Below are positions 17,726 to 59,198 of a DNA stretch of 64,000 nucleotides, piece after piece. Position numbers and translations under genes: made by a program. Below the pieces are notes generated by a model, which made no database searches, had not been told where the DNA came from, and saw nothing but the letters and a program-made list of their open reading frames with translations. Where the stretch lies: positions 14-64,013 of the forward strand of contig CAYMAV010000002.1 of the NCBI GenBank assembly GCA_964388545.1, given 5' to 3'. This DNA is from an uncultured Clostridium sp. (GTDB lineage Bacteria; Bacillota_I; Bacilli_A; RF39; UBA660). Positions within the stretch are counted from its first letter, which is position 1. Every line of letters starts with the position of its first letter.

Positions 17726-17748
17726 AAAAAAGCAGATTATTCATCTAC

Positions 17749-18178
17749 TTATTTTAGAGTTAAAAAAAGATCTTCTAAGTAATAATTATCATAGTAATTT
17801 ACTTTTTCTAACTTTTTATTCCATTTATCTACTAATCTTTTAATCTCACTATCACCTTTTCGATAAATAATTCTAAGTAACATAGCCGCCTTACTTAAAA
17901 AGTCAAAAAGATAATCATCATCATTAATTTTATTACTATCATAATAAGCTTCAATAATACTTTTAATAATTTTAAAAACCTCTAGAAATTCATCACCCTT
18001 TAGATATTGCTTAGTTCTTTCAACATAATCATTAATTCTAGACTCATAACCATTATTTATTACTAAATCATTATATAAATTGTTATAGTAAAACTCATAA
18101 GTTTGTTTTGGTAAATAAACTCTAAATTTTTCAGTAAAAGAATTTGCATTAAATGCTAATTTTTAGAAATTTTTTCAT
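17749..18178 (-). pseudogene. hypothetical protein gene with a +1 frameshift in an A5 run
   Basis: The ATG at 18178 has a strong 'AGGAGG' RBS and an upstream 'TGATATAAT'. The frame closes after 9 codons (TAA at 18149-18151). Removing one A from the A5 run (18160-18164) restores a roughly 142-aa ORF ending at the TAA at 17749-17751. Confidence 0.55.
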
Positions 18179-18241
18179 AATATTTTCCTCCTAATCTAAT
18201 TAAATTATATCATATTCATCAGAAAAATTAGATTTTTCATA

Positions 18242-27494: not shown

Positions 27495-28871
27495 TTAATA
27501 ATCACAGTTCCCTGGTGTTCTTGGATATGGAATCGCATCTCTAATATTTTCAATTCCAGTTATATACATAATAAGTCTTTCAAATCCCATTCCAAATCCT
27601 GAATGAGGACATCCACCATATCTTCTTAGATTTAGATACCACTCTATTTCACTAGGATCCATTTCTAATTCTTTCATTCTTTGAACTAGAGTTTCATAGT
27701 CATCTTCCCTTTGAGAACCACCTATTAACTCTCCCGCACCTGGAACCTGAAGATCAACTGCTGCAACGGTTTTTCCATCTTCGTTTAACTTCATATAATA
27801 AGCCTTTATATCCTTAGGCCAATTCTTAACAAAAACCGGTCCATTAAAATGTTCAGCTAACCATCTTTCATGTTCCTTAGCAATATCTCCTTCATAAGTT
27901 GGAGTAAACTCCCATTGTTCTTTAGAATTTAATAATAAATCAATCGCTTCTTTATGATCAATTCTAGCAAAATTACTATTTATTACCTTAGTTAATTTTT
28001 CTTTTAATCCTTTTTCAACAAAGGAATCTAAAAATTCTATTTCTTCAGGGCATTTATCTAAAACATATTTAATAATATATTTTAAAAAGTCTTCTTCCAT
28101 ATCCATTAAACCTTCTAAATCACAGAATGCTACTTCTGGTTCGATCATCCAAAACTCATTAGCATGAGTCTTTGTATTTGAATTTTCTGTTCTAAAAGTT
28201 GGTCCAAAGGTATAGATTTTTTTATAAGCCATCGCAAAAGTCTCACCATGAAGTTGACCTGATCCGGTAATCATTGTTTTCTTGCCGAATAATTCTTTTG
28301 AATAATCAACCTTACCATCTTTTTTAGGTATATTATTAAAGTCAAAAGTTGAAACCTTAAACATCTGATCAGACCCTTCACAATCAGCCGTTGTTAGAAG
28401 CGGAGTATGAACATAAACATAGTTATTACTTTGAAAATACTCATGTATTGCCATCGCTGCTACACTTCTTACTTTAAATACTGCTTGAAATAGATTTGCT
28501 CTTGGACGAAGATAGGCAATGCTTCTTAGAAATTCCATCGAATGTCTTTTAGGTTGTAGTGGATAATCTTCGCTACAGTCTCCAATTAATTCTACTTCTT
28601 TAATATCTACTTCAAATTCTTGACCACTACCAATTGATTCAATTACCTTACCAACTATTTTAATAGCCGAACCAATATGTAATTTAACTATTTTATCAAA
28701 TTCAAATATTTCGGCATTATAAACCAATTGGACTCTCTTAAAACTAGTACCATCTGTAAAATCAATAAAGCCAAAATCCTTTTGTTTACGATGATTTCTA
28801 ATCCATCCTTCAAGTACAACTTCTTTTCCAATATACTTCTTATAATCTTTAATTAATTCTTTTGTATCCAT
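27495..28871 (-). CDS. asnS: asparagine--tRNA ligase
   Basis: 'FRTENSNTKTHANEFWMIEPEVAF' and C-terminal 'GFGMGFERLIMYITGIENIRDAIPYPRTPGNCDY'. The start was moved to 'MDTKEL' (ATG at 28871, RBS 'GGGAGG') because the track's 30-codon extension runs into the T-box terminator. Confidence 0.92.
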   Translation of the reverse strand: MDTKELIKDYKKYIGKEVVLEGWIRNHRKQKDFGFIDFTDGTSFKRVQLVYNAEIFEFDKIVKLHIGSAIKIVGKVIESIGSGQEFEVDIKEVELIGDCSEDYPLQPKRHSMEFLRSIAYLRPRANLFQAVFKVRSVAAMAIHEYFQSNNYVYVHTPLLTTADCEGSDQMFKVSTFDFNNIPKKDGKVDYSKELFGKKTMITGSGQLHGETFAMAYKKIYTFGPTFRTENSNTKTHANEFWMIEPEVAFCDLEGLMDMEEDFLKYIIKYVLDKCPEEIEFLDSFVEKGLKEKLTKVINSNFARIDHKEAIDLLLNSKEQWEFTPTYEGDIAKEHERWLAEHFNGPVFVKNWPKDIKAYYMKLNEDGKTVAAVDLQVPGAGELIGGSQREDDYETLVQRMKELEMDPSEIEWYLNLRRYGGCPHSGFGMGFERLIMYITGIENIRDAIPYPRTPGNCDY

Positions 28872-28883
28872 AAATACCTCCCA

Positions 28884-29107
28884 ATAAAAAACTAGTCTCA
28901 TCCCATAGGGACGAAAACTAGTATTCCGCGGTACCACCCAATTTATTACCAAAGTAATCACTTATATCATAACGGAGACATCCGGCTTATTCTACTTATT
29001 TTCTTTAAGCTCTCACAAATGTTATTCATAACTTTTCTCTATTGATTTACACCTACCATCAACTCTCTATAAAAGATTAAAATTACTACTTCTTTTGCTC
29101 ATCGATT
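28884..29107 (-). promoter_or_regulatory. T-box leader (Asn specifier) controlling asnS-alr
   Basis: On the minus strand, the core 'GGGTGGTACCGCG' (28927-28939) is followed by the terminator 'ACTAGTTTTCGTCCCTATGGGATGAGACTAGTTTTTT'. The stem I element is 'AGAGAGTTGATGG', and the specifier 'GAATAACAT' contains AAC followed by A. Confidence 0.88.
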
Positions 29108-29113
29108 TATTAG

Positions 29114-29154: not shown

Positions 29155-30135
29155 TTACTTAACTTCTCTTACTGTATATCCTTTTATTTGCAATTGGTCA
29201 ACTATTCCATTTTCACCAACTACATGAGCTGATCCAACAATATAAAGCATTTTATAATTAAGATTGAAATATTCAATTAATTTATTAGTCATATGAATAT
29301 CTCTATCCGCTAACATCTTTTTATTATATTCTTCTATTAATTTTCTATCTTCTTCGCTATATTTTAAATTACTTATTTTTGTTTCTTCTATTTCTTTTCT
29401 TAAATCTTCTTTTATAGTTCCTTTTTTCCATGATTCATATAGTTTTTTTAAACTATCTGGATTTTTTTCATACGAATCAATTAAATCATTAATCATAATC
29501 TCAAAAAGCCTATCTGGATTATTAGCAAGAACATTCATTTGATCTTCTGCTTTTTCTACAGCAAATAATTTCTTATTATCTTTTTCGCCCTTATCTTTAA
29601 AAAACTGATCAACTCCAATTGTATTTAACAATCCTGACTTTTGATAACCTACCGCTTGAATAACTATGTAATAATAAAATGGATTCATTTTCTCATTATA
29701 ACTATTCATCATATTATTCTTATTTAAATAATTCTTAATTTTGTCGATAGTTTCTTTAGAAAAATGATTATTAATAGTATCATTTTCATTTTTGAACATA
29801 AACATACTAGGATCTTCTTTTGTTTCTGCATCTAAAATTTCAAATGCTAAATATTCGCTATAATTATATGCATCATTTAAATATTGTGGTAATTCTAGCT
29901 CATTAATATTTCCTAGATGAATGCTTCCTAATAAATATATTTTATTATTGCTTCCTTCTTTTGTTATTTCATATAATAACGGAGTAACCTTTTCTTTTTG
30001 TTCTTCTTTATCTTCTTTATCTACTTTATTACTTTCCTTTTTTTCACCATTAAAATATAAATAGGCTCCTGCTCCTATTAATACAAATGATAAAACTAAT
30101 AATAAATAAACTAATATCTTTTTATTCTTTTTCAT
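29155..30135 (-). CDS. TraB/GumN-family protein with N-terminal membrane anchor
   Basis: N-terminal 'LLGSIHLG' and C-terminal 'VGSAHVVGENGIVDQL' are the paired family motifs. There is a TM helix at aa 8-28. Confidence 0.7.
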   Translation of the reverse strand: MKKNKKILVYLLLVLSFVLIGAGAYLYFNGEKKESNKVDKEDKEEQKEKVTPLLYEITKEGSNNKIYLLGSIHLGNINELELPQYLNDAYNYSEYLAFEILDAETKEDPSMFMFKNENDTINNHFSKETIDKIKNYLNKNNMMNSYNEKMNPFYYYIVIQAVGYQKSGLLNTIGVDQFFKDKGEKDNKKLFAVEKAEDQMNVLANNPDRLFEIMINDLIDSYEKNPDSLKKLYESWKKGTIKEDLRKEIEETKISNLKYSEEDRKLIEEYNKKMLADRDIHMTNKLIEYFNLNYKMLYIVGSAHVVGENGIVDQLQIKGYTVREVK

Positions 30136-31631: not shown

Positions 31632-34031
31632 TTATTTAACAACTATATTTACTATTCTTCCTTGAATAACTATAATCTTAACGATTTCTTTTCCTTCAAG
31701 ATGTCTTTTAACATTTTCTTCAACTTGTGCTTTTTCTTTAATAATATCCTCACTATCATCAATACTAATGGTAATAGTTCCTCTTAATTTGCCATTAACC
31801 TGTACCCCTATCGTTTTTTCTTCATCAACTATTTTATTCTCATCATATTTAGGCCACTCACCATTATATAATGGAGAATTATCAATAGCTTCATTTAGCT
31901 CTTCCGTCATATGAGGAGCACATGGATATAATAGCTTTAAGAATGTTTCATAATCTTTTTTAGTAATAGATTCTTTTTCATAAAATGTATTAATTAACTT
32001 CATTAATTCTGCAATTGCAGTATTATACTTCATCGCTTCATAATCATCGCTAACCTTTTTAATTGTTTTATGAATCATTACCTCTAAATCTTTTGAATAA
32101 CCTTCTTCCTTATTAAGGCGATCTTTTAAATTATATGTTCTTTCTAAGAATCTTGATACCCCTTTAATCGAAGCCTCGCTCCAAGGACATTCTACTCCGT
32201 ATTCTCCCATAAATAAAATATATGTTCTTAAAGTATCTGCTCCATAATCCTTAATAGTTTCATCAAAATTAACAACATTTCCTCTTGATTTACTCATCTT
32301 TTCGCCATCGGGTCCTAGAATTAATCCTTGAGCAGTTCTCTTAGCATAAGGTTCTTTTGTTGGTACTACTCCAATATCATATAAGAACATATGCCAAAAT
32401 CTCGAATAGATAACGTGCCTTGTTACATGCTCCATGCCACCATTATACCAATCGACATTCATCCAGTATTTTAACTTATCAAAATCAGCTAAAGCTTTAT
32501 CGTTAGTTGGATCAATATATCTTAAGAAATACCATGATGAACCAGCCCATTGAGGCATTGTATCCGTTTCTCTTTTAGCATCTGCTCCACACTTAGGACA
32601 TTTGCAATTAACGAAAGATTCGATCTTAGATAACGGACTTTCACCATCCTCACCGACTACTAATTTATCAATTTTAGGTAATTTTAAAGGCAATTCATCA
32701 TAAGGAACCCCTACTGTACCACATTTAGGACAATGAATTATTGGAATCGGTTCGCCCCAATATCTTTGCCTATTAAAAGCCCAGTCTTGCATCTTATATT
32801 CGATTCTTTTAGCACCTAATTTCTTATCTTCTAAAAATTTAATCGCTTTATTAATTCCTTCTTCTTTAGTTTTAATCCCTTCTAAAATTGGTGAATTTAC
32901 ATATTCTCCATCCATTGTATAAGCTTCTTTAAAGATATCTCCACCTTTAATTACCTCGATTATATCGATACCAAATTTCTTAGCAAAAGCATAATCTCTT
33001 TCATCATGAGCAGGAACTGCCATTATCGCACCAGTTCCATAATTCATCATTACATAATCAGATACAAATATCGGAATTTTTTTATCATTAATTGGATTAA
33101 TTGCCTCTAATCCTTCAATTTTAACCCCTGTTTTATCTTTATTTAATTCAACTCTTTCAAATGCGGTTTTCTTTAAAGCCTCTTTTTGATACTTGTTAAT
33201 CTCTTCAATATTCTTAATTCTATCTTTGTATTTTGAAAGTAATGGATGCTCTGGTGAAATAACCATAAAAGTTACTCCATATAAGGTATCAGGTCTAGTT
33301 GTAAATACCTTTAGAATATCCTTAAGACCATCTATCTTAAAATCGATATTAGCACCAACTGATCTACCAATCCAATTTTCTTGTTGTAATTTTATATTTG
33401 GTAGATAATTAACATCATTTAATCCTTCTAATAATCGATCAGCATATTTAGTAATTCTTAAATACCAAACATCTTTTTCTTTTTGGACTATCTCGCTCTT
33501 ACAAATATCGCATTTACCACCTTGGCTATCCTCATTAGATAATACGACCTTACAACTAGGACAATAATTTACCATTGTCTTATCACGAAAAACTAAATCA
33601 TTATCAAACATCTTTAAGAATATCCACTGGGTCCATTTATAATAATTTTCATCCGTTGTATCAATCATTCGATCGTAATCAAAAGAAAACCCTACCGCCT
33701 GCAACTGCTCAGTAAATGTCTTAATATTCTTATCGGTTACTTCCCTTGGTGAAATACCGGTTTTCATCGCATAGTTTTCTGTCGGAAGTCCAAAAGCATC
33801 AAATCCAATAGGAAATAACACATTATAGCCTTCCATTCTTCTTTTTCTAGCAATTACCTCTAATCCGATATAGGCTTTAACATGTCCAATATGCATAAAA
33901 GATCCACTTGGATATGGAAATTCTACCAATAAGTAACTTTTTTCCTTTTTACTATTATCTTCAGCTTTATAGGCCTTTTCTTTTAGCCATATCTCTTGCC
34001 ATTTTTTTTCTATTTTCTTAAAATTATACAT
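31632..34031 (-). CDS. leuS: leucine--tRNA ligase
   Basis: HIGH motif 'MHIGHVKAY', KMSKS motif 'EKMSKSRGN', and Zn-finger Cys pairs 'CPSCKV...CDICKS'. 799 aa. Confidence 0.95.
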   Translation of the reverse strand: MYNFKKIEKKWQEIWLKEKAYKAEDNSKKEKSYLLVEFPYPSGSFMHIGHVKAYIGLEVIARKRRMEGYNVLFPIGFDAFGLPTENYAMKTGISPREVTDKNIKTFTEQLQAVGFSFDYDRMIDTTDENYYKWTQWIFLKMFDNDLVFRDKTMVNYCPSCKVVLSNEDSQGGKCDICKSEIVQKEKDVWYLRITKYADRLLEGLNDVNYLPNIKLQQENWIGRSVGANIDFKIDGLKDILKVFTTRPDTLYGVTFMVISPEHPLLSKYKDRIKNIEEINKYQKEALKKTAFERVELNKDKTGVKIEGLEAINPINDKKIPIFVSDYVMMNYGTGAIMAVPAHDERDYAFAKKFGIDIIEVIKGGDIFKEAYTMDGEYVNSPILEGIKTKEEGINKAIKFLEDKKLGAKRIEYKMQDWAFNRQRYWGEPIPIIHCPKCGTVGVPYDELPLKLPKIDKLVVGEDGESPLSKIESFVNCKCPKCGADAKRETDTMPQWAGSSWYFLRYIDPTNDKALADFDKLKYWMNVDWYNGGMEHVTRHVIYSRFWHMFLYDIGVVPTKEPYAKRTAQGLILGPDGEKMSKSRGNVVNFDETIKDYGADTLRTYILFMGEYGVECPWSEASIKGVSRFLERTYNLKDRLNKEEGYSKDLEVMIHKTIKKVSDDYEAMKYNTAIAELMKLINTFYEKESITKKDYETFLKLLYPCAPHMTEELNEAIDNSPLYNGEWPKYDENKIVDEEKTIGVQVNGKLRGTITISIDDSEDIIKEKAQVEENVKRHLEGKEIVKIIVIQGRIVNIVVK

Positions 34032-34410
34032 TTTTTAACCATCCCTTCTTTTTAAAATACATAGCTATTAACTTTAAACTTATTAAATATATTGGAAACA
34101 ACAACAATGTAGATAATAATATTTGAAGTCCAATAGTCTTCTTAACAAAAATTGATACTATCAGCATTACCACTACTATTTCAAGTGCTAAGAGAAGTCC
34201 AATCAACTTTAAAACTGCTCTTAAATTAACCTTATTTAAATCAACTTTATATTTGATTACAAAAAATTTAACCTCGCTAGGAAGAGCATCATAATCCTTA
34301 ATATTTTTCTTTTTCTTATTTTTATAATGTCCATCTTTATCAAACCTTCTAATAGTAACTGTAAAATATATAAGATAAACAATTAATATATATATTGTTA
34401 AGCTAATCAT
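34024..34410 (-). CDS. small polytopic membrane protein (128 aa), first gene of the leuS transcript
   Basis: The ATG at 34410 is preceded by 'AGGAGGAA'. It has 3-4 hydrophobic helices and overlaps the leuS ATG by 8 nt. Confidence 0.55.
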   Translation of the reverse strand: MISLTIYILIVYLIYFTVTIRRFDKDGHYKNKKKKNIKDYDALPSEVKFFVIKYKVDLNKVNLRAVLKLIGLLLALEIVVVMLIVSIFVKKTIGLQILLSTLLLFPIYLISLKLIAMYFKKKGWLKNV

Positions 34411-34420: not shown

Positions 34421-34620
34421 AAAAATAAAAAATATCCATCCAGCTAAGGACGAATATTTCGCGGTACCACCTTAATTCACATAAATGTGCTCTTTAAACT
34501 TTATATCGCAAGTAACGGTTTTGTTTTTTTAAGATAAGTTCATAAATCTCATACTATTGATTTTCACCATCCATCAACTCTCTTTAAATAATTCATTTAT
34601 TACTACTTCTTAACAAATAC
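34421..34620 (-). promoter_or_regulatory. T-box leader (Leu specifier)
   Basis: On the minus strand, the core 'AAGGTGGTACCGCG' (34460-34473) is followed by the terminator 'ATATTCGTCCTTAGCTGGATGGATATTTTTT'. The stem I element is 'AGAGAGTTGATGG', and the specifier 'GAACTTATC' contains CUU followed by A. Confidence 0.88.
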
Positions 34621-34626
34621 AAATCT

Positions 34627-34655: not shown

Positions 34656-36278
34656 CTATTTAATTATATATGTATAAATTCGATTTCTAACATTAATATC
34701 TAAATAGATTTTTTCAGCTTCTTTTAATCTAGTTCTAACCTCTAGAAAGGCATAATTAAGAGTTGGAAGTGGAGTTATATCCTTTAGATTAATCTTATGT
34801 TGATACTCCTTACCTTTAATAACAAATCTTATACTTCCATGATCTTCAAAAAACTTATTATTTTTATACCTATTACCTAGATATTTTCTATCAAAGGATA
34901 AATCATAATCTATTCTCATTACCGATAAATCATAGGTCGAATTAAAATTTGGAACAATACTGTCATATCTTGTTATACAATCATTATTTACGCAGTATTT
35001 AGCCTTATACAAAAAGTTTTGTTCTATTCTTATATTCCTTATATTTAATTTAGTATTTCCTAACAGGCTATCCTTAAAAATTATCTCCTCACCTAATTTT
35101 TTTTCTTCGATAACTTTTGGATTATTAAACTCACTAGGTTTTAATTTAACTGTACGATATTTAAAATCCATTTCACTATCTTTATATTCAATATCGTATA
35201 AATATCTTAAGTAAATACTCCTACTATCATAATATTTTTTATCAATTTCATATACTAAAGTAAATATTCTTTTCTCACCATTTTTTATGCTCTGATTATA
35301 GTAATTCTCTCCGAATTCCGGGAAATCATCATTAAGAAGTTTATTAGGAGTAACCATATAAAACTCATCAAGCTTTACTTTAGCATTTTCCATATTAATG
35401 CTTTCAATATCAAAACCTGAGATATTTTCATAATTTAACTTAATTATCAAATAAAACTTATCGCTTTTTAACTTATCATTTAAATTTTTAGTATAAGTTT
35501 TATAACTATTTAAAACCTCTATTTTATAAGCACTTGTTTTAAAACTTGTCCCTTCTTTATATATTTTTTCTCTTACAAGTATAAAATCTAAAATAATTGA
35601 TAGAAAAACAATTCCCACTACTGCAAAGAATATAAAAAACAGTAACTTATTTTCTTTATAATTATATTTTAATATCCTTAATCTTTTTCTAATTTTTGCT
35701 TTTATATCTTCGGTATCAATATTTAATTGAAACTCAAACTCTTCACGGTCTTCACTAGATAATTCAAAATCCATTAAATCTTTTTGAAAATCAAATTTCT
35801 TAATATCAAAACCAGTCATTCTTACAAATGATAAGATTAAACTACCAATTTGGACAAATACTAAAGTAAAATAAATATCTCTAAGTATTTTTGTAAATCT
35901 TAAATCTGGTACATCAAACTGAAGATCGTATAAGAAATTAGATGCATAGAAAAATAACAAAAGAACTATAATATAAACAATTAAGTTAAAGACATAAAAG
36001 ATAATCGGTTTATTCTTATGCTTCATTAAATATAAGACCACTGCTGAAATAAGTATTATTACAATAAGTACTAAAATAACCGAAGTAGAAGTATATGCTC
36101 CAGAATAATCCTCATATAAAGGAACTCCTTGATAATTAGTAATATAATTACCAAAAAAAATCGATAAATTTATACTCTTAAACAAAACATATAAAATACC
36201 AGCAAAAAGTATCATATGTATTAATTTAAAATATTTAATTAAAAATGCATACGGTTTCCTTAATATCATCACTATCAC
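34656..36278 (-). CDS. polytopic membrane protein with large C-terminal extracytoplasmic domain, unknown function
   Basis: 540 aa. About five TM helices lie in the first roughly 240 aa, with an acidic cytoplasmic loop 'DFELSSEDREEFEFQ'. A beta-rich domain of about 300 aa follows. Last gene of the holA-containing operon. Confidence 0.5.
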   Translation of the reverse strand: MIVMILRKPYAFLIKYFKLIHMILFAGILYVLFKSINLSIFFGNYITNYQGVPLYEDYSGAYTSTSVILVLIVIILISAVVLYLMKHKNKPIIFYVFNLIVYIIVLLLFFYASNFLYDLQFDVPDLRFTKILRDIYFTLVFVQIGSLILSFVRMTGFDIKKFDFQKDLMDFELSSEDREEFEFQLNIDTEDIKAKIRKRLRILKYNYKENKLLFFIFFAVVGIVFLSIILDFILVREKIYKEGTSFKTSAYKIEVLNSYKTYTKNLNDKLKSDKFYLIIKLNYENISGFDIESINMENAKVKLDEFYMVTPNKLLNDDFPEFGENYYNQSIKNGEKRIFTLVYEIDKKYYDSRSIYLRYLYDIEYKDSEMDFKYRTVKLKPSEFNNPKVIEEKKLGEEIIFKDSLLGNTKLNIRNIRIEQNFLYKAKYCVNNDCITRYDSIVPNFNSTYDLSVMRIDYDLSFDRKYLGNRYKNNKFFEDHGSIRFVIKGKEYQHKINLKDITPLPTLNYAFLEVRTRLKEAEKIYLDINVRNRIYTYIIK

Positions 36279-36303
36279 CCTTTATTATCTTTATTATAAA
36301 CTA

Positions 36304-37533
36304 TTATTCTATATATACATCAAATATATTTTCACTGTTATATTTAAATTCATTCCTTGTAACTAATGGAAAGATTCCATAACGATTATTTTTATAAATA
36401 ACAGTATCTTTTAAGTAGAAAACATCTTCCTTTTCCACTTTAAAATTAGTAACGGATGAATCATTTAATATAAGTATCGGATTATCTAAATACTCTTTAT
36501 ATATTTTATAATATTTATTATCTTTTTTAATAACTATAAACTTTCCTCTTGGGTTATCGTATATTTCATCATAATTTAACCCACGATAATCTTCAAATTC
36601 AAAAGTAAAAATAACATCCTTTTTAAGTTCATAAACACTTATATCCTTCTTTTTTCCATGTACAATATTAATACCCTCTTTTTCGGTATTAGCAATCTCC
36701 AATACCTCCATTTTAATTGGATCGATTGAATATTGTTTTAAATTACTTCTGTCAAAAATATATAATTTATTTTCATACTCTCCATTAATATAGTAATTTT
36801 TTGATATTGAATTACCAAAATCGATATCTTTTTGCACTCCATTTTCAATATTGTACACAATAAATTCATCAAGAACTGGAGAAGATGATAATTTAGGAAC
36901 AATATAGAATTTACCCAATTGATAACCATAATTATTCTTATATACATCATAATTTGCAAAAACAAAATAATCTCTTCTATTCTTGTTTAATAAAACTATT
37001 TTTTTATAAGAGTATACTAAAATGTTTTCTTCATTTAAATAGCCTAAATTTAAAGAAATATCGTCATAGGGAATTGTATCCTTATCTAATTTTTTATAAT
37101 CCTCATAGGTTGATTTTTTTAGTTTTTTCATAAAAGCACTAAAATCATATTTTTTCTCTACCATACTAAAAGATACTAAATTATCATCTTCATAACATAA
37201 AGGATAACTACTTTCACTATCGTTTTTATAATCAAGTGCTAAACATAAAAGATTATTTTCTTCATAAACATTAACTGATTCGACAATTTCTATTTGTTTA
37301 TTAAAATTATTATCTGTATCAAAAAGAAAATCTTTTTCCTTGTAATTAACTTTCAATAAATAATAATCATTATCTTTGTTTTTTATATATTTTTCATTTA
37401 TTTTAAAAACCATATTATTATTCTTATAAAAATAATCGATATTATGAGATTTTTTAAAGTAATTAGCACCGATTTGATAGAAGATTAACAATATAATAAT
37501 TATTAATATAAATGAAATACTTTTTTTTATCAT
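36304..37533 (-). CDS. N-terminally anchored beta-rich protein, unknown function
   Basis: 409 aa. A single N-terminal TM ('ISFILIIIILLIFYQIG') is followed by an Asn/Tyr/Lys-rich, repetitive beta-strand-like sequence. Confidence 0.5.
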   Translation of the reverse strand: MIKKSISFILIIIILLIFYQIGANYFKKSHNIDYFYKNNNMVFKINEKYIKNKDNDYYLLKVNYKEKDFLFDTDNNFNKQIEIVESVNVYEENNLLCLALDYKNDSESSYPLCYEDDNLVSFSMVEKKYDFSAFMKKLKKSTYEDYKKLDKDTIPYDDISLNLGYLNEENILVYSYKKIVLLNKNRRDYFVFANYDVYKNNYGYQLGKFYIVPKLSSSPVLDEFIVYNIENGVQKDIDFGNSISKNYYINGEYENKLYIFDRSNLKQYSIDPIKMEVLEIANTEKEGINIVHGKKKDISVYELKKDVIFTFEFEDYRGLNYDEIYDNPRGKFIVIKKDNKYYKIYKEYLDNPILILNDSSVTNFKVEKEDVFYLKDTVIYKNNRYGIFPLVTRNEFKYNSENIFDVYIE

Positions 37534-37541
37534 ACAACCAC

Positions 37542-38459
37542 CTATAATCCTAAAATAAAGAGTTCAAATAATAAATCGATATCTTTATATTCACTCTTGC
37601 TTATAATATCAATATCACTTAAAGCATCAAGCATATCGATAAGTTCTGTTTCTGTATAATTCTCGGAATTATTAATCGCCAATTTAACTGGATATAGTTT
37701 TTGATTAGTAAAGTCTGCTATTTCCTCTGGAGTCATTTTACTAGATAAAATCTTAGCAATATATAAATTTCTAATCTGATGAGAAATAGTTGCTAAAAGC
37801 TTTACTGAATCCTTTTCCTTGCTAGATAGCCTATGAAAAATCTCGATCGCTTTAAATTTATCCTTTTTGCTAATCGCATTAGGTAAAATAAATGGATCAT
37901 CTTCATAATCTCTAACTACATTAAAAATGATATCTTCTTTAGTAATTATTTTTTCATCGTCATTTATTTTTAAAATTTTTAATTTATTTAATTCGTTTAA
38001 TATCTTTTCATTATTATTTAAGCAATGAATAGCAAAATATTTTATCGTATCATTATCCATTTTATAATGTTCCAAATTCTTTTTTATTAAATCTTCAGAA
38101 TTTATATATTTCTCTATTATTTCTAGATATTTATCTATCTTTGATAAAATGTTCTTCTTTATAGAATTTGCAACCAATATTAAATAATTATCACTAGGTT
38201 TTTCTAAATACTTTATCAATACCGATAAATCTTTTTCATCAACTAATTCAAAATTTTCTAAAATAACTACTTTTTTATTTGTAAAAAGATTAAAAGTATC
38301 CAGTTCCTCAGTTAACTTAGCAAAAGAGGTATCAGGATATAAATATTTAATTAAGTCATAATCCTCTTTTATCGATTTAAGAATAATATCTAAATTAAAT
38401 TGGGCGTTAAATTTATCCAAAGAAATAATAAGATAATTATTTTTCATTAGGCTTTCCAT
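37542..38459 (-). CDS. holA: DNA polymerase III delta subunit
   Basis: 305 aa. The HolA-like layout has 'KKVVILENFE...LIKYLEKPSDNYLILVA', 'LNELNKLKIL', 'PFILPNAISKKDKFKAIEIFHRL' and C-terminal 'LSDIDIISKS...LFELFILGL'. Confidence 0.7.
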   Translation of the reverse strand: MESLMKNNYLIISLDKFNAQFNLDIILKSIKEDYDLIKYLYPDTSFAKLTEELDTFNLFTNKKVVILENFELVDEKDLSVLIKYLEKPSDNYLILVANSIKKNILSKIDKYLEIIEKYINSEDLIKKNLEHYKMDNDTIKYFAIHCLNNNEKILNELNKLKILKINDDEKIITKEDIIFNVVRDYEDDPFILPNAISKKDKFKAIEIFHRLSSKEKDSVKLLATISHQIRNLYIAKILSSKMTPEEIADFTNQKLYPVKLAINNSENYTETELIDMLDALSDIDIISKSEYKDIDLLFELFILGL

Positions 38460-38874
38460 ATTTTTTCTTTAATCTGATCATATTCTTACTAATATTTGTC
38501 TCAATCTCTGGAAGTGCTGCTTTATCAATATTTGTTAGTACAACTTCTTCTTTAATTGTATCAATTTTTATTTTCCCCCAAATTAATCCTGCTCTTATAT
38601 TAAGGTCATTATACATATAGGGCATAATTGAATCAAAGTAATAACCAAAGACAAATCTTTTCCTTCCAATAATTAGTCTCTCATTTGTAAGGGCGATTAT
38701 AGCTGTTGAAAATACATCATAGAAATGTTCATTTTTTTGTGCAACAAATAAATACAAAATCTCTTCTCCAGGATTTAAATGCTTTTCGATTATTAAAGAA
38801 TTTTTTCTTAATCTCCATGCAATTGTTAAAGGATATTTTGATCTAAAACTTTTGGCCATTTCATAAACTGTCAT
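38437..38874 (-). CDS. bacterial PH-domain protein (YokE-like)
   Basis: 145 aa. The pattern 'LNPGEEILYLFVAQKN...STAIIALTNERLIIGRKR...IKIDT' matches the bPH/YokE-like layout. Overlaps holA by 23 nt. Confidence 0.5.
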   Translation of the reverse strand: MTVYEMAKSFRSKYPLTIAWRLRKNSLIIEKHLNPGEEILYLFVAQKNEHFYDVFSTAIIALTNERLIIGRKRFVFGYYFDSIMPYMYNDLNIRAGLIWGKIKIDTIKEEVVLTNIDKAALPEIETNISKNMIRLKKKYGKPNEK

Positions 38875-38883
38875 AATAACCTC

Positions 38884-39468
38884 CTAAAATATATCTTTAA
38901 TTAACTTATCGATAAAATCTATTAACTTATTAAATAAGCCTACTATAAAATCTAGTATTTTTTGAAAGATATTTTTCTCTTCTTTTACCTCTTCTTTTGG
39001 TTTTTCTTCTTCAATTTTCTCCCAAATACCAATCTCTTTTTCTTTAGCTAATGCTTCTGCTTCTGATAATTTTTTAAAATAGATATATTTTTCTTCTAGA
39101 AAAACTGGTTTAATATAACCGTTTTTAACAAGATTTTCCTGTAATAGTACTCCATCTATTAAAACCCAAGCTTGAATTCTACCATATTGATCTTCTTTTA
39201 AGCTAGGTTCATACTCTAAATTAATCTTCTTAGCCTTTTTTAAAAGAGAACAGGTATAATCGCTAACTGAGAAAACCTTATTATCAAAAGTAATTTCATC
39301 AGTAGTATCAACCCCGATAAACTTTACCTTAATTTCTTTTAAACCGTACATAAAACGTGCAGAATTTGCATCAACACAAGCACTTAATGTTACAGTATCA
39401 ACTTTATTTGCCGCGAATACATTAAGCGGTAAAAGAATCATAAATAATATAGCTATAAACTTTTTCAT
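38884..39468 (-). CDS. secreted thermonuclease (SNase)-family protein
   Basis: The ORF was trimmed to Met17. The signal peptide is 'MKKFIAILFMILLPLNVFA|AN'. SNase-like motifs are 'VKFIGVDTTD' and 'DQYGRIQAWVLIDGVLLQENLVKNGY'. RBS 'AGGAG'. Confidence 0.75.
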   Translation of the reverse strand: MKKFIAILFMILLPLNVFAANKVDTVTLSACVDANSARFMYGLKEIKVKFIGVDTTDEITFDNKVFSVSDYTCSLLKKAKKINLEYEPSLKEDQYGRIQAWVLIDGVLLQENLVKNGYIKPVFLEEKYIYFKKLSEAEALAKEKEIGIWEKIEEEKPKEEVKEEKNIFQKILDFIVGLFNKLIDFIDKLIKDIF

Positions 39469-39475
39469 ATTGCTC

Positions 39476-41725
39476 CTAATCATCAAAGAAATCATCAAAA
39501 AACTTTTCATCCTCACTAATATCTTCTAGTTTTATAGTTGCTACTGGCTTTGGAGGTTCGATTGCAATTTCTTTTTCTATTTTTAACTCGCTTGGATTAT
39601 CGTATATTTTGACATTATTTTCAACAGTTATCTTAGGTTTTTCTTCATATGTTTTTTCTAAATGTTCAATATTTTTATTAACATCTGCCTCTATTCGATT
39701 ACAAATCTCTTCAGTTACTTTTATATTTTGCTTTTCTAATCTAGCTTTTTCTTTTCTTTCTTTTTCTTTTCTTTCTTCTTCTTCAATCTCATTTAACTTA
39801 GCATCTATTTTAGCAACTAAATCGCTAACCGATAAATCTGGCTTTGAATTTCTTTTTTCTGTCGGTTTATTGTTTTCACCATTAAAACCAAAAGGACTAT
39901 AACCAAAATCCATATCAGGACTATAACCAAAATCCATATCAGGACTTGCTTTTTTTGCATCATCATCTTTTTTATCTTTATTGATAGATGCCATCATCTC
40001 ATTTAACTTTTCATTTTTCTTAGCTTTAACAAATTCTCTTATATCAAAAACTTCAATCTTTCTTTTTTCTCTTTCGTTATATTTAGCTTTCGGATATTTT
40101 TTTCCACCCCAGTCAATTTTAAAATCTGGAACAAAAGAGTGTTTAAATGGATTTTTTCTAAGTCTTAAAAGTATTTGATCAAATTGCTTCATCCTTTGCA
40201 AATCGCTTACTGTAACAAGTGGTGTTGAAGCTGTTTTATCATCCTTTTTAGATTTTTTTTCTCCACATAACTTACTAATCTCCTCCAAAGCTGCTAATTC
40301 CGTAGAAATAAGATAAATAATATTACCGCAGTTACCTTTAATAGTTTCTGCCTCATCTTTTCCATAAACCTGATTTAACTGAGCAAAATTTTGAATAATC
40401 AAAGTAAAACGAATAAGTTTTGACCTTGCTGCCGTAATCATTGTTGTAACATCTTTTAAAGGGGGCATGTTTGCAAACTCATCAAGAATAAAGTTAGTTC
40501 TAATTGGCAATTTACCACCATTATGTTGAGCAACATCGATTAAAGTTTCATATGCTTGTTTAATAAAAATTGTTGCTAATGAGTGATATGTCTTCTTTTC
40601 GTCTTGAATAATTATAAATACTGCTGTTTTTTCTTTACCAATCGTTGAAATATCAAAGTCACTATAACTTAACATTTCTGTTAAATTTTCACGAGTTGCA
40701 AAAAGTTTAACCTTTTGTTTAAAAACCGAAATAATACTTCCCTTTGTATCACTAGGAGCCGCTACCGTTCCTATCGCATTTACATAAGCAGCACTTGTTG
40801 GTTCCTTATAGTTAAAATACTCTTTTATATAAGTTGAACCACCAAATTTATCGTCTCCAACCGAAGAAGTTAAATTAATACTATTAATATTTATCTGATT
40901 TTCTGGAGCATCTTCAAAAAGTGCTAAAGAAATACCCGTAAAGTAATCTGCTGCCGTATTTTGCCAGAATGGATCGTCGTTTTGCGACTTTTCATCATAC
41001 AATATATTTAATGCTAAGTCATCTATTAACTCAATTCCCTTATCAAAATTTCCAGCTTTGTATAATCTATAAGGTAGATCCAGTGGATTCCAACAATTTC
41101 CTCTTTGTGGAGAACGAAAGTTTAATAATATTACATTATAACCATTAGCTCTTAACATTTCTCCGGTATCTTCATATAACTCCCCCTTAGGGTCAGTAAC
41201 TATTATTGATTCTCCTGCTTTAATTAAAGTTCTTAATTGAGGTAAAACAATACACTGAGTTTTACCAGAACCAGTAGATCCTATTACTAAAGTATGAAAC
41301 TCTCCGTTATCCACCCATAATTCAGTACCATTAGAAATAAGCGGTGTTCCAGCATGTTTAATTTTATCATCAGATGCTAACACCCTTACTACATCTTTAT
41401 CGTTTTTAATTTCTTTAACATTAGCCCAATCACTATATCCGCCTGAATTAACTTTACCAACGCGAAAACCAAAACCTTTTTCAAATTCAAAGAAATAAGA
41501 TTTAACGCTTAATAAAAGTCCAACCATTGAAACTAAATAAAGAATTAAAGTATATGCTATATTATCTGGAAAAAACGCTGGTATTGGATTTAACCCATAA
41601 AAAGTTCCATCGGCTGATAAAGTCTGTATATTTAATACTGAAATAGCAATTAAATACAATAAAAATACAGCAAATATAGCAAAAATTGTCAGATCTTTTT
41701 CTGTTGCTACAAATTTGAATTTCAT
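39476..41725 (-). CDS. VirD4/TraG-type type IV coupling protein-like membrane ATPase
   Basis: 749 aa. N-terminal TM helices, Walker A 'GSTGSGKT', 'VTDPKGE', 'DPFWQNTAADYF', Walker B region 'FILDEFANMPPL', and 'LIIQNFAQLNQVYG'. The C-terminal tail is low-complexity and K/E-rich. Confidence 0.8.
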   Translation of the reverse strand: MKFKFVATEKDLTIFAIFAVFLLYLIAISVLNIQTLSADGTFYGLNPIPAFFPDNIAYTLILYLVSMVGLLLSVKSYFFEFEKGFGFRVGKVNSGGYSDWANVKEIKNDKDVVRVLASDDKIKHAGTPLISNGTELWVDNGEFHTLVIGSTGSGKTQCIVLPQLRTLIKAGESIIVTDPKGELYEDTGEMLRANGYNVILLNFRSPQRGNCWNPLDLPYRLYKAGNFDKGIELIDDLALNILYDEKSQNDDPFWQNTAADYFTGISLALFEDAPENQININSINLTSSVGDDKFGGSTYIKEYFNYKEPTSAAYVNAIGTVAAPSDTKGSIISVFKQKVKLFATRENLTEMLSYSDFDISTIGKEKTAVFIIIQDEKKTYHSLATIFIKQAYETLIDVAQHNGGKLPIRTNFILDEFANMPPLKDVTTMITAARSKLIRFTLIIQNFAQLNQVYGKDEAETIKGNCGNIIYLISTELAALEEISKLCGEKKSKKDDKTASTPLVTVSDLQRMKQFDQILLRLRKNPFKHSFVPDFKIDWGGKKYPKAKYNEREKRKIEVFDIREFVKAKKNEKLNEMMASINKDKKDDDAKKASPDMDFGYSPDMDFGYSPFGFNGENNKPTEKRNSKPDLSVSDLVAKIDAKLNEIEEEERKEKERKEKARLEKQNIKVTEEICNRIEADVNKNIEHLEKTYEEKPKITVENNVKIYDNPSELKIEKEIAIEPPKPVATIKLEDISEDEKFFDDFFDD
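39893..39946 (-). repeat. 24-nt tandem direct repeat (2.25 copies) inside the coupling-protein tail
   Basis: The plus-strand unit 'AGGACTATAACCAAAATCCATATC' occurs at 39893-39916 and 39917-39940, with a partial third copy. It encodes 'SPDMDFGY' twice. Confidence 0.9.
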
Positions 41726-41754
41726 ACACTACACATCCTTAAATTTCTTATTAA

Positions 41755-41763
41755 ATAATACCA
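41755..41763 (-). promoter_or_regulatory. extended -10 promoter candidate for the coupling-ATPase operon
   Basis: The minus strand reads 'TGGTATTAT' (TGnTAnnAT) about 30 nt upstream of the ATG at 41725. Confidence 0.4.
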
Positions 41764-41798: not shown

Positions 41799-42224
41799 TT
41801 AAGATTTTATTTTTGAAAAATCTCCATTTAAAACAATTGGAGAAAAACCATGAATTTCATCATATAACAATCCTTCCGGAATATCGTTATATAAATAAAT
41901 TTTTTTATTATATCTAAAAGCCTCATACATCTCTAAAAAGGTTGAACCACCAATATAATTTTTATAAACTTTTCCATCTTCTTCTTTATCTAAATTAAGA
42001 GCTATGATTTCATCGACATCTTTTACTATTTTTTCACTTCTTTTTATCATTTCTCTTTTAAATTTTTTTTGCTCTTCTTCCGTCATCTTTTTTTCTTTAT
42101 TTTCTATATCATCTTCACCATAACAATTAGGAAAATGAACATTTATATTCATCCTCTCAAGTTTATCTTTAATATTATCAATATACTTATAAAATCTCTT
42201 ACTATAAACTATTAATATATCCAT
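41799..42224 (-). CDS. nucleoside 2-deoxyribosyltransferase-like superfamily protein (tentative)
   Basis: 141 aa. 'VDEIIALNLDK...NYIGGSTFLEMYEAFRYNKKIYLY' resembles the D..G(T/S)..E.g.A...K motif of that fold. Judged by eye only. Confidence 0.35.
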   Translation of the reverse strand: MDILIVYSKRFYKYIDNIKDKLERMNINVHFPNCYGEDDIENKEKKMTEEEQKKFKREMIKRSEKIVKDVDEIIALNLDKEEDGKVYKNYIGGSTFLEMYEAFRYNKKIYLYNDIPEGLLYDEIHGFSPIVLNGDFSKIKS

Positions 42225-42280: not shown

Positions 42281-42529
42281 TTAAAAACTATCTATTTCAA
42301 TTCTTACTCTTTTATTTTCTTTTAAGCTACTACTAGCTTGAACTAAAGTTCTTATCGCCTTAATATTTTTACCTTCTCTTCCGATTATTCTTCCAATATC
42401 ATTAGAAGAAACCATCGCCTGGATCATAATAGTATTTTCTTCTTCAGTTTCAAATTCCTTAACCGAAACACTATCCTTATCCTTAGCAAGAGACATCAAA
42501 ATTTCCTTTGTTAATTCAACTAATTCCAT
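42281..42529 (-). CDS. KH-domain RNA-binding protein (YlqC-like)
   Basis: 82 aa. 'IGRIIGREGKNIKAIRTLV' contains the GxxG KH motif. It sits in the conserved position directly after rpsP. Confidence 0.85.
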   Translation of the reverse strand: MELVELTKEILMSLAKDKDSVSVKEFETEEENTIMIQAMVSSNDIGRIIGREGKNIKAIRTLVQASSSLKENKRVRIEIDSF

Positions 42530-42531
42530 AA

Positions 42532-42801
42532 TTATTTACTTCCTTTTTTATCTTCTCTAAATTTAGCCATAACGCCTTTTTTGCTTAATAGACTTCTAAC
42601 TGTATCTGTAGGAAGTGCTCCATCATTTAACCATTTAAGTGCTACTTCATCATTAATAACAACCTCATCATTAGCTGGATTATATGTACCAATTTGTTCA
42701 ATATATTGTCCATCTCTTGATTTTCTTGAATCACTAGCAACAATTCTATAAACTGGTTTGTTTTTAGCCCCTAATCTAGTTAATCTAATTCTAACTGCCA
42801 T
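42532..42801 (-). CDS. rpsP: 30S ribosomal protein S16
   Basis: '[42 protein letters not shown]'. Confidence 0.97.
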
Positions 42802-42860
42802 TTTATTCCCTCCATTTCATCTATATGCATTATATATTAATTAAAAAGAGGTGTCAACCA

Positions 42861-47708: not shown

Positions 47709-47876
47709 AAAAAAATGTCTAAAAGAATGGGTACGATAAAACCCGCTCCCCGCAGGTGGGTGTCCTTACATAACCTTTAGGATTCTTATTTAAAATAAGC
47801 CTTCACACCAGTTATCGATCAAAACTCCCTTATCGTTCAATTAGTCGGTTTTACAACTCCGATTCTTTAGACAATC
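47709..47876 (-). ncRNA. candidate structured RNA (about 168 nt), class undetermined
   Basis: A GC-rich island in an AT-rich spacer. An extended -10 'TGGTATATT' lies at 47879-47887. The 5' 'UUGUCUAAAGAAU' pairs with the 3' 'AUUCUUUUAGACA', followed by U7. Internal helices are UCGG/CCGA, ACGAUAA/UUAUCGU, GGUGU/ACACC and CUUAUU/AAUAAG. Confidence 0.5.
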
Positions 47877-58221: not shown

Positions 58222-58249
58222 GCAATAAAAAAAGAACTATTTAAGTTCT
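58222..58249 (-). terminator. intrinsic terminator after the divIVA-domain gene
   Basis: Stem AGAACT/AGTTCT (58233-58249) overlaps the TAG and is followed by a U-run on the minus strand. Confidence 0.55.
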
Positions 58250-58668
58250 ATTTCATCTATTTCTTCAATAACCGCTAATTGTTGTTCAACAACTAGTTTT
58301 AGCTTTCTTTTAAATATTCGCATATTTCTTTCTAATACATCAGCTTTTATCTCTATTTTCTCAGCTCTTAATAAAGCATCATTTATAATTCTTGAAGCAT
58401 TCTTTCTCGCATCCTCAACAATTGAATTTCGCTCTTCATAGGCTGCTTTTCTAATATCGGTAGATGTCTGTTCAGCTTTAAATAAAGCATTCTTTAATTC
58501 ATCCTCCGTCTTTTTAAAATTAACTAACTGAGAATTTAAGTTTTCTATTTCTTGTTGTTGTTCTTTCATCTTGTTAAGCATATTTTCTGTTTGAAAAATG
58601 ACATCGTCAAGAAACTTGCTTACTTCTTCAATATTGTAACCACGCTCAACTACGGTAAACTTCTTCAC
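58237..58668 (-). CDS. divIVA: DivIVA-domain protein
   Basis: The N-terminal lipid-binding motif 'FTVVERGYNIEEVSKFLDDV' is followed by coiled coil. 143 aa. Confidence 0.75.
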   Translation of the reverse strand: MKKFTVVERGYNIEEVSKFLDDVIFQTENMLNKMKEQQQEIENLNSQLVNFKKTEDELKNALFKAEQTSTDIRKAAYEERNSIVEDARKNASRIINDALLRAEKIEIKADVLERNMRIFKRKLKLVVEQQLAVIEEIDEIELK

Positions 58669-58700
58669 GACCTCACCTTCCTTTAACTTATTAATTTATC

Positions 58701-59111
58701 TTAGAAATCAAATTCATCATCTTCTGATGAGGCCTTTGTATCCTTCTTTTTTAATCCATCATCAGAAATTTTACCTTCAACTGCTACTGAACTAGGACAG
58801 CATAGGAATATTCCTCCACCTAATTTTTGTAAATCTCCGTTCATTGCATAAACCGCTCCACTTAAAAAATCAACTATCCTTTTAGCTTGATCAGGTGTTA
58901 CTCTTCTTAAATTTACAATAACCGACGATTTCTTTTTAAGATAATCTGCTATTTGCTTTGATTCTGAATAAGCTCTCGGTTCTAACAAGATCATTGTCGA
59001 ATCCTTCTTTACATTAGCGATTACCTCACCATCTACTTCATAATATTCTTCTTCCATATCTTCATTATCAGAATTTCCAAAAAGTTTATTTTTTAATTTA
59101 CTAAATGCCAT
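58701..59111 (-). CDS. sepF: cell division protein SepF
   Basis: 'ILLEPRAYSESKQIADYLKKKSSVIVNLRRVTPDQAKRIVDFLSGAVYAMNGDLQKLGGGIFLCCP'. Confidence 0.85.
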   Translation of the reverse strand: MAFSKLKNKLFGNSDNEDMEEEYYEVDGEVIANVKKDSTMILLEPRAYSESKQIADYLKKKSSVIVNLRRVTPDQAKRIVDFLSGAVYAMNGDLQKLGGGIFLCCPSSVAVEGKISDDGLKKKDTKASSEDDEFDF

Positions 59112-59198
59112 TTTCTATATCCTCCATATTTTATATTTATATATTATCATAAGTATTTCGCTTTTTAAAGATTTTACAATCTATTTTACTTTAGTTTA

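Follow-up and report, generated by a model that had tools for sequence, protein, structure and literature searches.

What does a coupling protein of a type IV secretion system (T4SS) do in a run of core chromosomal genes where no other part of such a system is found? The question is raised by six tightly packed genes within a 64-kb stretch (~27% GC) of contig CAYMAV010000002.1 from an uncultured Clostridium sp. of the GTDB lineage RF39; the whole stretch is hereafter called the window, and the coordinates of the cluster refer to its positions. The genes encode a T4SS coupling protein (T4CP), a protein with a staphylococcal nuclease (SNase) fold, a bacterial PH-domain (bPH) protein, the DNA polymerase III delta subunit (holA) and two envelope proteins of 409 and 540 aa, here called p409 and p540. 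An initial annotation had described them as an uncharacterised DNA-handling module fused to holA; its gene annotations were right, whereas the autonomous module was only partly supported. We consider it probable that the cluster is a composite holding the detached T4CP of a vertically inherited chromosomal T4SS, and not a dedicated machine.

The window encodes a conserved coupling protein

Profile searches agreed with the proposed identities of the T4CP, SNase-fold, bPH and holA genes, and the ATPase passed the T4CP profiles by a wide margin. It matched T4SS-DNA_transf (2.5e-63, 215 bits), TrwB_AAD_bind (9e-27, 94 bits) and TraG-D_C (2e-24, 86 bits), against curated cut-offs of 20-22 bits, and scored 304 bits (cut-off 250) with the NCBIfam equivalog conju_CD1115, 'VirD4-like conjugal transfer protein, CD1115 family'. 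DotL and TrwB were its sequence matches in the PDB. The N-terminus has two hydrophobic segments at approximately residues 13-33 and 57-75, as read from the translation without a topology predictor, and the protein has a P-loop ATPase core (GSTGSGKT ... FILDEFANMPPL). The linker is of low complexity and rich in K and E; within it, a perfect 24-nt tandem duplication (Table 1) encodes the peptide DMDFGYSP twice. Linker length is highly variable among the orthologues, which span 704 to 1,057 aa, and the protein ends in an FFDDFFDD tail that is kept in 77 of 78 orthologues.

Orthologues terminate the operon of a chromosomal T4SS

Relatives of the T4CP are encoded on at least 500 species-representative genome contigs, of which we viewed the 80 best (56-73% identity), with about 10 kb on each side of the gene. 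More than 7,500 homologues were present in the database, the top 120 at 56-74% identity. The 80 loci come from the guts of humans, ruminants, rabbits, mice and chickens. Most belong to metagenome-assembled genomes labelled 'Bacilli bacterium', 'Tenericutes', 'Erysipelotrichaceae' or Candidatus Scybalousia, and a few are labelled otherwise (uncultured Clostridium sp., Muribaculaceae). The species of the window itself is not represented in these 80 loci.

Clustering of the open reading frames (ORFs) in these loci revealed that the T4CP gene nearly always closes a fixed block of co-directional genes, with a VirB4-like gene at most 10 kb upstream in 69 of the 80; the exceptions are mostly short contigs. 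The block comprises, in this order, one or two small pilins matching T4SS_pilin (PF18895; VirB2-like), a polytopic TrbL/VirB6-like protein of 650-730 aa (TrbL_4), two small proteins, one of ~107 aa and one of ~185 aa that matches TraC-like proteins weakly, a VirB4-like ATPase of ~596 aa (AAA_10, P-loop_TraG, CagE_TrbE_VirB), a large cell-wall hydrolase with a SpoIID domain (an M23 peptidase in locus L084), a protein of 230-260 aa (x9) directly 5' of the T4CP gene and, finally, the T4CP itself. All four core parts of the Gram-positive minimal T4SS are co-encoded in L004, L040, L085 and L084, where the components were called by TrbL_4, AAA_10/P-loop_TraG/CagE_TrbE_VirB, SpoIID or Peptidase_M23, T4SS_pilin and the T4CP profiles; the precomputed domain labels for L085 and L084 agree with these assignments. 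Because its orthologues end a T4SS operon in those 69 loci, the apparent isolation of the window gene, which had been taken for a 'stand-alone' ATPase, is best read as displacement.

The genes flanking the block are housekeeping genes, encoding a rhodanese, a DedA/VTT protein, RmuC, TrpRS/TyrRS, an AP endonuclease, a histidine kinase and a methionine gamma-lyase. The relatives have small genomes, contigs with T4CP orthologues reaching 1.0-1.3 Mb, and plasmid-borne T4CPs are only 29-32% identical to that of the window. In an alignment of 15 T4CPs, several hundred positions and the C-terminal FFDDFF motif are invariant. Judged from L019, where the T4CP is 64% identical to that of the window and the Asx-tRNA synthetase 69%, the coupling protein appears nearly as conserved as a tRNA synthetase of the same genomes. 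Given the fixed gene order, the housekeeping flanks, the distance of the plasmid T4CPs and the contigs of 1.0-1.3 Mb, these uncultured low-GC gut Bacilli carry on their chromosomes a T4SS that is inherited vertically and, by its gene content, belongs to the minimal Gram-positive kind (type IV-C / MPF-FATA-like). A literature search on the RF39 and RFN20 groups found no published description of this T4SS in gut Bacilli.

Could the locus nevertheless be the remnant of an integrated conjugative element (ICE) or plasmid? Its match to the CD1115-family conjugal transfer model would suit such an origin, and its nearest annotated homologues reside on conjugative plasmids of Enterococcus and Bacillus. 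Those homologues, however, do not exceed 32% identity, whereas at least 500 species have orthologues at 56-74% identity, placed in one and the same operon and between clade-conserved housekeeping genes. The 30 related-locus ORFs scanned against Pfam (10 kb on each side, no dedicated MOB profiles) had no match to relaxase or integrase families. The hallmarks of ICEs and genomic islands are likewise missing from the window: we found no integrase, no tRNA gene and no att-like flanking repeats beyond AT-rich chance matches, and the GC content of the cluster (22-31%) matches its flanks without a compositional break. General family profiles, which included no dedicated MOB profiles, detected no relaxase among the scanned window ORFs, and hidden Markov models (HMMs) built from the relatives' genes found no pilin, VirB6, VirB4, hydrolase or accessory gene in the six-frame translation of the window. 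A further 30 window ORFs, including all unannotated ones of at least 220 aa, were either housekeeping genes or had no family match. As far as tested, then, the initial annotation was correct in placing the cluster between core genes outside any ICE and in finding no other conjugation gene in the window. It had also named, as counting against its proposal, homologues that occur only in ICEs or plasmids beside relaxase and VirB4 genes. In part this came true: adjacency to VirB4 was found, but neither an ICE or plasmid location nor a relaxase was seen. We regard a mobile-element remnant as highly improbable.

Further observations concern the T4SS loci of the relatives. A conserved protein of ~290-336 aa (c11; L063 43-1053 and 29 other loci) usually opens the operon, 5' of the pilin genes. 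Although it matches no Pfam family, it shows by eye a ParA/TadZ-like glycine-rich motif (GVKNVTDGAGATTF) and may be an assembly or positioning ATPase. Very large secreted proteins are encoded beside the T4SS/T4CP genes of some relatives. In L001, a cysteine-rich one of 1,292 aa (1934-5812) takes the place of the VirB4/VirB6 portion 5' of the hydrolase gene. That of L019, 1,532 aa long (14158-18756), contains nine Listeria-Bacteroides repeats and, at its N-terminus, a methylation motif like that of type IV pilins; a further N_methyl pilin-like gene (490-1107) is nearby.

The coupling protein gene was probably displaced within a subclade

The three closest assemblies, L081, L082 and L086, encode T4CPs 72-74% identical to that of the window and share its gene order: rpsP, KH, T4CP, SNase, bPH, holA, p409, p540, T-box leader, 128-aa ORF and leuS. 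The six-gene order is complete in L082 and L086, as well as in 8 of the 80 species-representative loci, and in L081 it extends to p540, which is cut by the contig end; the gene order, for which the initial annotation had proposed such a comparison, is conserved in the nearest relatives. According to precomputed Pfam labels, the rpsP-KH-T4CP junction is common to all three independent assemblies, and rpsP was found upstream of T4CP in none of the 80 species-representative loci.

More distant loci display what may be the intermediate states. In L002-L004, L006, L009 and L068, with T4CPs 64-70% identical to that of the window, the full T4SS block is followed directly by the same downstream genes. 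L085 likewise has the full block and then SNase, bPH, holA and p409 as in the window, plus an extra 227-aa ORF, and L001 and L007 retain only hydrolase, x9 and T4CP. The simplest history suggested by these gene orders is a progressive fragmentation of the operon in this branch, which ended with T4CP and its downstream genes behind rpsP-KH; rpsP-KH would thus mark the rearrangement junction. A 141-aa ORF without a family match lies between the KH and T4CP genes of the window (Table 1). L081, L082 and L086, whose junction is the same in other respects, lack this ORF and have T4CP directly behind KH; it is a recent insertion at the rearrangement junction.

Of 278 alignment columns that are at least 97% conserved in the 69 VirB4-linked orthologues, the window T4CP keeps 263, with mostly conservative deviations at the others. 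The retention of these columns and of the C-terminal tail leads us to infer that the protein is still functional and probably serves the same T4SS machinery. The tail of the F-plasmid protein TraD binds TraM; by analogy, the conserved FFDDFF tail of the T4CP may be a docking peptide.

The displacement also admits another outcome, namely that the subclade lost the T4SS channel and kept the T4CP for a different job, for example as a membrane ATPase acting on DNA or nucleoprotein together with other partners. The T4SS block is missing from the 64 kb around the gene, the loci form a graded series from the full operon (L004) through hydrolase-x9-T4CP (L001, L007) to T4CP alone (window), and substitutions at near-invariant columns are above the typical number in the subclade. 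Exaptation has, moreover, been raised for T4CPs encoded far from virB4 in Patescibacteria (PMC12102498). Yet 95% of the near-invariant positions are kept, including the ATPase motifs and the C-terminal tail, which argues for the same partners, and T4CP genes apart from virB4 are common in working systems (PMC12102498). An orphan, exapted T4CP is therefore unlikely in our view, and a displaced component of a persisting T4SS remains the reading that we prefer.

The SNase-like protein is probably not a nuclease

The protein encoded next to the T4CP matched PF00565 (1.1e-8, 35.9 bits, cut-off 21) and the thermonuclease chains of the PDB (phmmer E ~1e-13), and carries a Sec-type signal peptide, MKKFIAILFMILLPLNVFA/AN, as read from the sequence. 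The initial annotation had called it a secreted nuclease. At the active-site positions of staphylococcal nuclease, however, it has N21, K35, D40, T41, D43, Y85 and R87, so that three catalytic or Ca-binding positions are replaced (D21N, R35K, E43D). Apart from the fold, the profile and the secretion signal, it shares Y85 and R87 with staphylococcal nuclease, whereas Y113 and Y115 are lost and a conserved C-terminal amphipathic helix is added; with the NucI equivalog it scored 52 bits against a cut-off of 250. Classic SNase mutagenesis is the basis for expecting loss of activity at the replaced residues.

The substitutions are not peculiar to the window, and most orthologues encoded next to a T4CP are similarly altered. 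Of 18 aligned homologues, 16 are without D21 and the majority carry K35, with free variation at positions 40, 41 and 43; the canonical catalytic set is complete only in L024 and L031. All 18 possess the C-terminal amphipathic helix (NIFQKILDFIVGLFNKLIDFIDKLIKDIF), which may hold the protein at the cell surface. In view of D21N, R35K and E43D, the protein is probably catalytically degenerate and binds DNA or another nucleic acid instead of cutting it.

Membrane nucleases of the thermonuclease family scavenge nucleotides in Mycoplasma, and the gene might encode just such a plain surface nuclease, functionally unrelated to the T4CP. The fold and signal peptide are compatible with this role, as are the small genomes of the relatives and the two homologues that retain the full catalytic set. 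The loss of D21 in 16 of the 18 homologues and, mostly, of R35, together with free variation at positions 40, 41 and 43, is on the other hand not expected under catalytic selection. Furthermore, of the 14 species-representative loci with an SNase-like gene, 13 have it directly behind T4CP. A scavenging nuclease thus seems a rather poor explanation, and we favour a degenerate binding protein.

The bPH and holA genes join the cluster in a minority of loci

The bPH protein matched bPH_3 (PF14470; 1.3e-10), has no transmembrane segment and gave no informative PDB sequence match; by these features it is a small soluble PH-like protein, predicted to be cytoplasmic. Its gene, which overlaps the start of holA by 23 nt, is found downstream of T4CP in 17 of the 80 loci, and a TraF-like thioredoxin gene adjoins bPH or p409 in 18 loci. 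HolA is a clear equivalog of TIGR01128 (2.3e-42, 145 bits, cut-off 80) with a DNA_pol3_delta_C match (8e-22). It occurs in the T4CP cluster in only ~10 of the 80 loci, and its presence therefore reflects lineage-specific synteny of a housekeeping passenger.

In Bacillus subtilis, holA is part of a comEA-comEB-comEC-holA neighbourhood, and the cluster had been likened to a replacement of these competence genes. The window shares with the ComE locus a holA gene placed 3' of envelope genes that may handle DNA. Unlike that locus, it has no ComEC-like protein among its large ORFs (PheT, an FtsX-type permease, PFL, DnaE, YfhO and LeuS) and no ComEA beside holA among the ORFs scanned, which included some of those below 220 aa outside the cluster, and with so few loci linking T4CP to holA the arrangement is not a conserved replacement in the ComE slot.

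The absence of the accessory genes from most species was assessed by searching the 80 loci iteratively with HMMs of the six proteins and of the flanking ones; two rounds sufficed for convergence. In most species, SNase, bPH, holA, p409 and p540 are truly absent from the 10 kb downstream of T4CP and not just too diverged to be recognised.

Envelope proteins p409 and p540 do not resemble a DNA-handling machine

Neither p409 nor p540 matched a Pfam or NCBIfam family. The AlphaFold2 model of p409 (pLDDT 91) has an N-terminal membrane anchor and an extracellular all-beta, propeller-like domain, for which Foldseek returned only generic beta-propellers (TM-score <0.35). Its cysteines C97 and C113 are invariant, and with 31 homologues found it represents a small, fast-evolving family. 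The p540 model (pLDDT 87) comprises ~5 transmembrane helices, a cytoplasmic loop that is acidic and conserved and, on the outside of the cell, two beta-sandwiches of the DUF4352 type. At least 893 homologues were found, some of which carry PF11611, and the consensus N-terminus of the family is MILRKPYAF. Foldseek matched p540 to CD630_09570 of Clostridioides difficile and to YxkC, YcdA and YjhA of B. subtilis. The extracellular part superposes on these DUF4352 proteins with target-normalised TM-scores of 0.6-0.66 (0.29 for the larger YcdA); p540 differs from them in its N-terminal bundle of about five helices, its acidic loop and its two domains, and the window protein falls below the Pfam threshold. 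Neither the predicted structures nor the Foldseek matches display DNA-handling features.

Their linkage to the T4CP is partial. The p409 gene lies downstream of T4CP in 24 of the 80 loci and the p540 gene in 21, and both are missing from the 10 kb downstream in ~55 of the 80 species. One p540 homologue, in the region 12476-19460 of L083, has no T4CP within 10 kb, so that the family also exists apart from T4CPs. L083 belongs to a spore-forming relative with CotJB and Mn-catalase genes; there, the p540 homologue adjoins a T2SSE-ATPase cluster of the type IV pilus or competence pseudopilus type, with two ~1,000-aa proteins nearby. The two envelope proteins may be surface accessories of the T4SS or may reflect decaying synteny. 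We rejected a paralogous relation of p409 to a component of the T4SS block, as profile-profile comparison by hhalign gave probabilities of at most 67% for p409 with the block proteins m402, c20 and x9, of p409 with p540, of p540 with m402, and of x9 with x10, x28 and x36.

These results bear on the proposal of an autonomous module for DNA uptake or export across the envelope, with the T4CP as motor, the SNase as entry nuclease, p409 and p540 as channel or outer parts, and a position beside holA equivalent to the ComE slot. The order of the six genes is kept in the nearest relatives both with and without a T4SS block upstream, the genes are tightly spaced without an internal terminator, the window has no other T4SS part, p540 is polytopic and p409 is anchored at the surface, all of which such a module would predict. 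But orthologous T4CPs overwhelmingly end a complete VirB4/VirB6/pilin operon, the catalytic set of the SNase is degenerate, and holA joins the cluster in few loci. The two envelope proteins, which resemble neither a channel nor a DNA-binding fold, are missing downstream of T4CP in most species, and p540 has a homologue without any T4CP. Tight spacing, finally, is the norm across the window (see below). An autonomous module is therefore improbable, and a composite cluster around a displaced T4CP accounts better for the distribution of its genes.

Gene cluster and chromosomal setting

The window genes all lie on the minus strand. Recomputed ORFs reproduced the six cluster genes (Table 1) with the spacings of 7, 9, -23, 8 and 25 nt given in the initial annotation. 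Gaps of at most 25 nt make up 47% of all intergenic gaps in the window, so such packing is not unusual here. Upstream (5') of the cluster are the 141-aa ORF, the KH-domain gene, rpsP and a gene for a YfhO-family protein; downstream (3') are the T-box leader, a 128-aa membrane-protein ORF and leuS. Elsewhere, the window has the gene content of an ordinary core chromosome, including pheS/pheT, an [FeFe] hydrogenase, a T-box-controlled Asx-tRNA synthetase, alanine racemase, dnaE, pyruvate formate-lyase, glycosyltransferases and 6S RNA.

Table 1. Features of the cluster and of its surroundings, in window positions
Feature	Position	Strand	Remarks
T4CP gene	39476..41725	-	749 aa; Pfam and NCBIfam matches above cut-offs
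Tandem duplication in T4CP linker	39893..39940	-	24-nt unit
SNase-like gene	38884..39468	-	from ATG (39516 from upstream GTG); PF00565
bPH gene	38437..38874	-	PF14470 (bPH_3)
holA	37542..38459	-	TIGR01128
p409 gene	36304..37533	-	409 aa; no Pfam or NCBIfam match
p540 gene	34656..36278	-	540 aa; no family match; ATG at 36269 is the probable true start
Candidate extended -10 TGGTATTAT, 5' of T4CP gene	41755..41763	-	read from sequence; unverified
141-aa ORF	41799..42224	-	
rpsP (42532-42801) and KH-domain gene (42281-42529)	42281..42801	-	ORFs; new upstream neighbour of T4CP
Perfect consensus sigma-70-type promoter TTGACA-17-TATAAT, 5' of rpsP	42829..42857	-	12/12 match
leuS T-box leader	34443..34622	-	Rfam RF00230, 95.4 bits; downstream boundary of cluster
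Promoter-like site	34655-34627		
Terminator-like hairpin in leuS T-box leader	34460-34429		first terminator past cluster
128-aa ORF	34024..34410	-	
TraB/PrgY/GumN-family gene	29155..30135	-	PF01963, 7.8e-45
Second T-box leader	28904..29111	-	
Asx-tRNA synthetase gene	27495..28961	-	
6S RNA gene	47712..47876	-	63.8 bits
HerA/DUF87-type ATPase gene and two ORFs	58237..60971	-	590 aa (PF01935, 2.6e-20), 136 aa and 143 aa

The candidate extended -10 upstream of the T4CP gene, TGGTATTAT, from which the cluster had been thought to be transcribed, is present in the sequence. Promoter-like sites, however, occur in this AT-rich DNA at the rate of shuffled sequence (72 found versus 68.8 expected); the element is for this reason indistinguishable from chance, and we do not rely on it. 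A terminator scan detected no minus-strand terminator-like site between the perfect promoter 5' of rpsP and the T-box terminator. With this sole strong promoter and no intervening terminator, the cluster may be the tail of a long transcription unit, likely extending from rpsP through KH and the 141-aa ORF (p141) to T4CP and p540.

Several neighbouring features deserve mention in their own right. The 128-aa ORF, which encodes a predicted membrane protein, separates the leuS T-box leader from leuS, shares 8 nt with the start of the latter and is kept as 127-128 aa in L082 and L086; it is unusual for a small membrane protein to be controlled by a T-box(Leu). The second T-box leader precedes (5') the Asx-tRNA synthetase gene. 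The TraB/PrgY/GumN-family protein, with an N-terminal anchor, may be confused with a conjugation gene, but despite its name this family does not form part of T4SSs. A HerA/DUF87-type ATPase gene, followed by two small ORFs, is located about 17 kb 5' of the T4CP gene. An orthologous three-gene set (47-61% identity) stands directly downstream of T4CP in L021 (12171-14952), and the set could be a DNA-handling module of the FtsK/HerA superfamily that is loosely linked to the T4SS.

Relation to described systems

The closest described system is the chromosomal, relaxase-less T4SS of the MPF-FATA type in Patescibacteria, the candidate phyla radiation (Microb Genom 2025, PMC12102498). In that group, only 148 of 5,713 T4CP homologues are encoded near virB4, the possibility of exaptation is raised, and T4SS genes other than t4cp are essential for epibiotic growth (PMC12102498). 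Like the T4SS of the gut Bacilli, the Patescibacteria system is of the monoderm type and chromosomal, comprises VirB4, VirB6 and PF18895/VirB2-like pilins, and is found in small genomes of uncultured organisms; it is conserved by lineage, has no relaxase nearby and may have its T4CP far from virB4. The gut Bacilli differ in that the hosts are low-GC Bacilli and that the T4CP gene is normally the last of the operon (in the 69 loci described above) and very strongly conserved. They also have lineage-specific accessories, namely the degenerate SNase, bPH, TraF-like thioredoxin, p409 and p540.

By sequence, the closest named relatives are the T4CPs of the CD1115 family / type IV-C, found in the CTn elements of C. 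difficile, plasmids of Enterococcus and Bacillus, and the 89K island of Streptococcus suis. These systems have in common with that of the gut Bacilli the T4CP domain architecture and profile membership and the minimal set of VirB4, VirB6, a cell-wall hydrolase and VirD4. In contrast to them, the window T4CP, at 29-32% identity, is not on a mobile element, has no relaxase in view and bears a long C-terminal extension ending in FFDDFF.

Proposed role and implications

If the displaced T4CP still serves its original system, it would be the substrate receptor and ATPase of a T4SS whose remaining parts are encoded elsewhere in the genome. A T4CP hexamer would recruit cargo at the membrane and feed it to the VirB4/VirB6 channel, with the acidic-aromatic tail presumably docking a partner in the manner of TraD and TraM. 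The exported SNase-fold protein may bind extracellular nucleic acid near the apparatus, and p409 and p540, which accompany the T4SS operon in roughly one species out of four, are possible surface accessories. As to the cargo, the transfer of DNA or nucleoprotein between cells or with the medium is favoured, since the T4CP belongs to a DNA-binding family, its partner has an SNase fold and Patescibacteria provide a parallel, but the balance between nucleic acid and protein or other cargo is close to even.

Several points weigh against this interpretation. The T4CP is the only T4SS component within the 64-kb window and could thus be a true orphan. The T4CPs of the subclade (n=3) deviate at 11-16 of the 278 near-invariant columns, compared to a median of 1 (maximum 22) in the VirB4-linked orthologues; the extra deviations fit an outlying lineage and also some relaxation of constraint. 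In several clades, unrelated genes come between p409/p540 and the T4CP, and most clades have no such link at all; it may be neutral synteny. Finally, there is no relaxase near the T4SS in any locus viewed (10 kb on each side, a sample of ORFs), which argues against classical conjugation and weakens the reading as DNA transfer. Nevertheless, the occurrence in at least 500 species, the vertical inheritance, the lack of a nearby relaxase and the strong purifying selection make it unlikely that this T4SS is selfish conjugation machinery.

A more far-reaching picture can be drawn, which we put forward as speculation with a limited chance of being right in full. A large clade of gut Bacilli with ~1-Mb genomes would have domesticated a vertically inherited T4SS that has no relaxase nearby and serves a host- or neighbour-dependent lifestyle; the dead, surface-held SNase-fold protein would act as a DNA receptor and p409 and p540 as surface adaptors, and the ATPase module of the subclade would be physically, and perhaps functionally, independent of the channel.

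Two lessons for annotation follow. A T4CP that seems to stand alone among core genes can belong to a chromosomal T4SS whose genes are dispersed, and an SNase match beside a T4CP is not to be read as an active nuclease. For the organisms themselves, uncultured low-GC Bacilli that are abundant in the guts of humans, ruminants, rabbits and poultry, the Patescibacteria parallel offers a testable handle on lifestyle, that is, on neighbour dependence, DNA exchange and nutrient acquisition. If the interpretation is true, the domesticated T4SS would serve these bacteria in the acquisition of DNA or nucleotides or in contact-dependent exchange with other cells.

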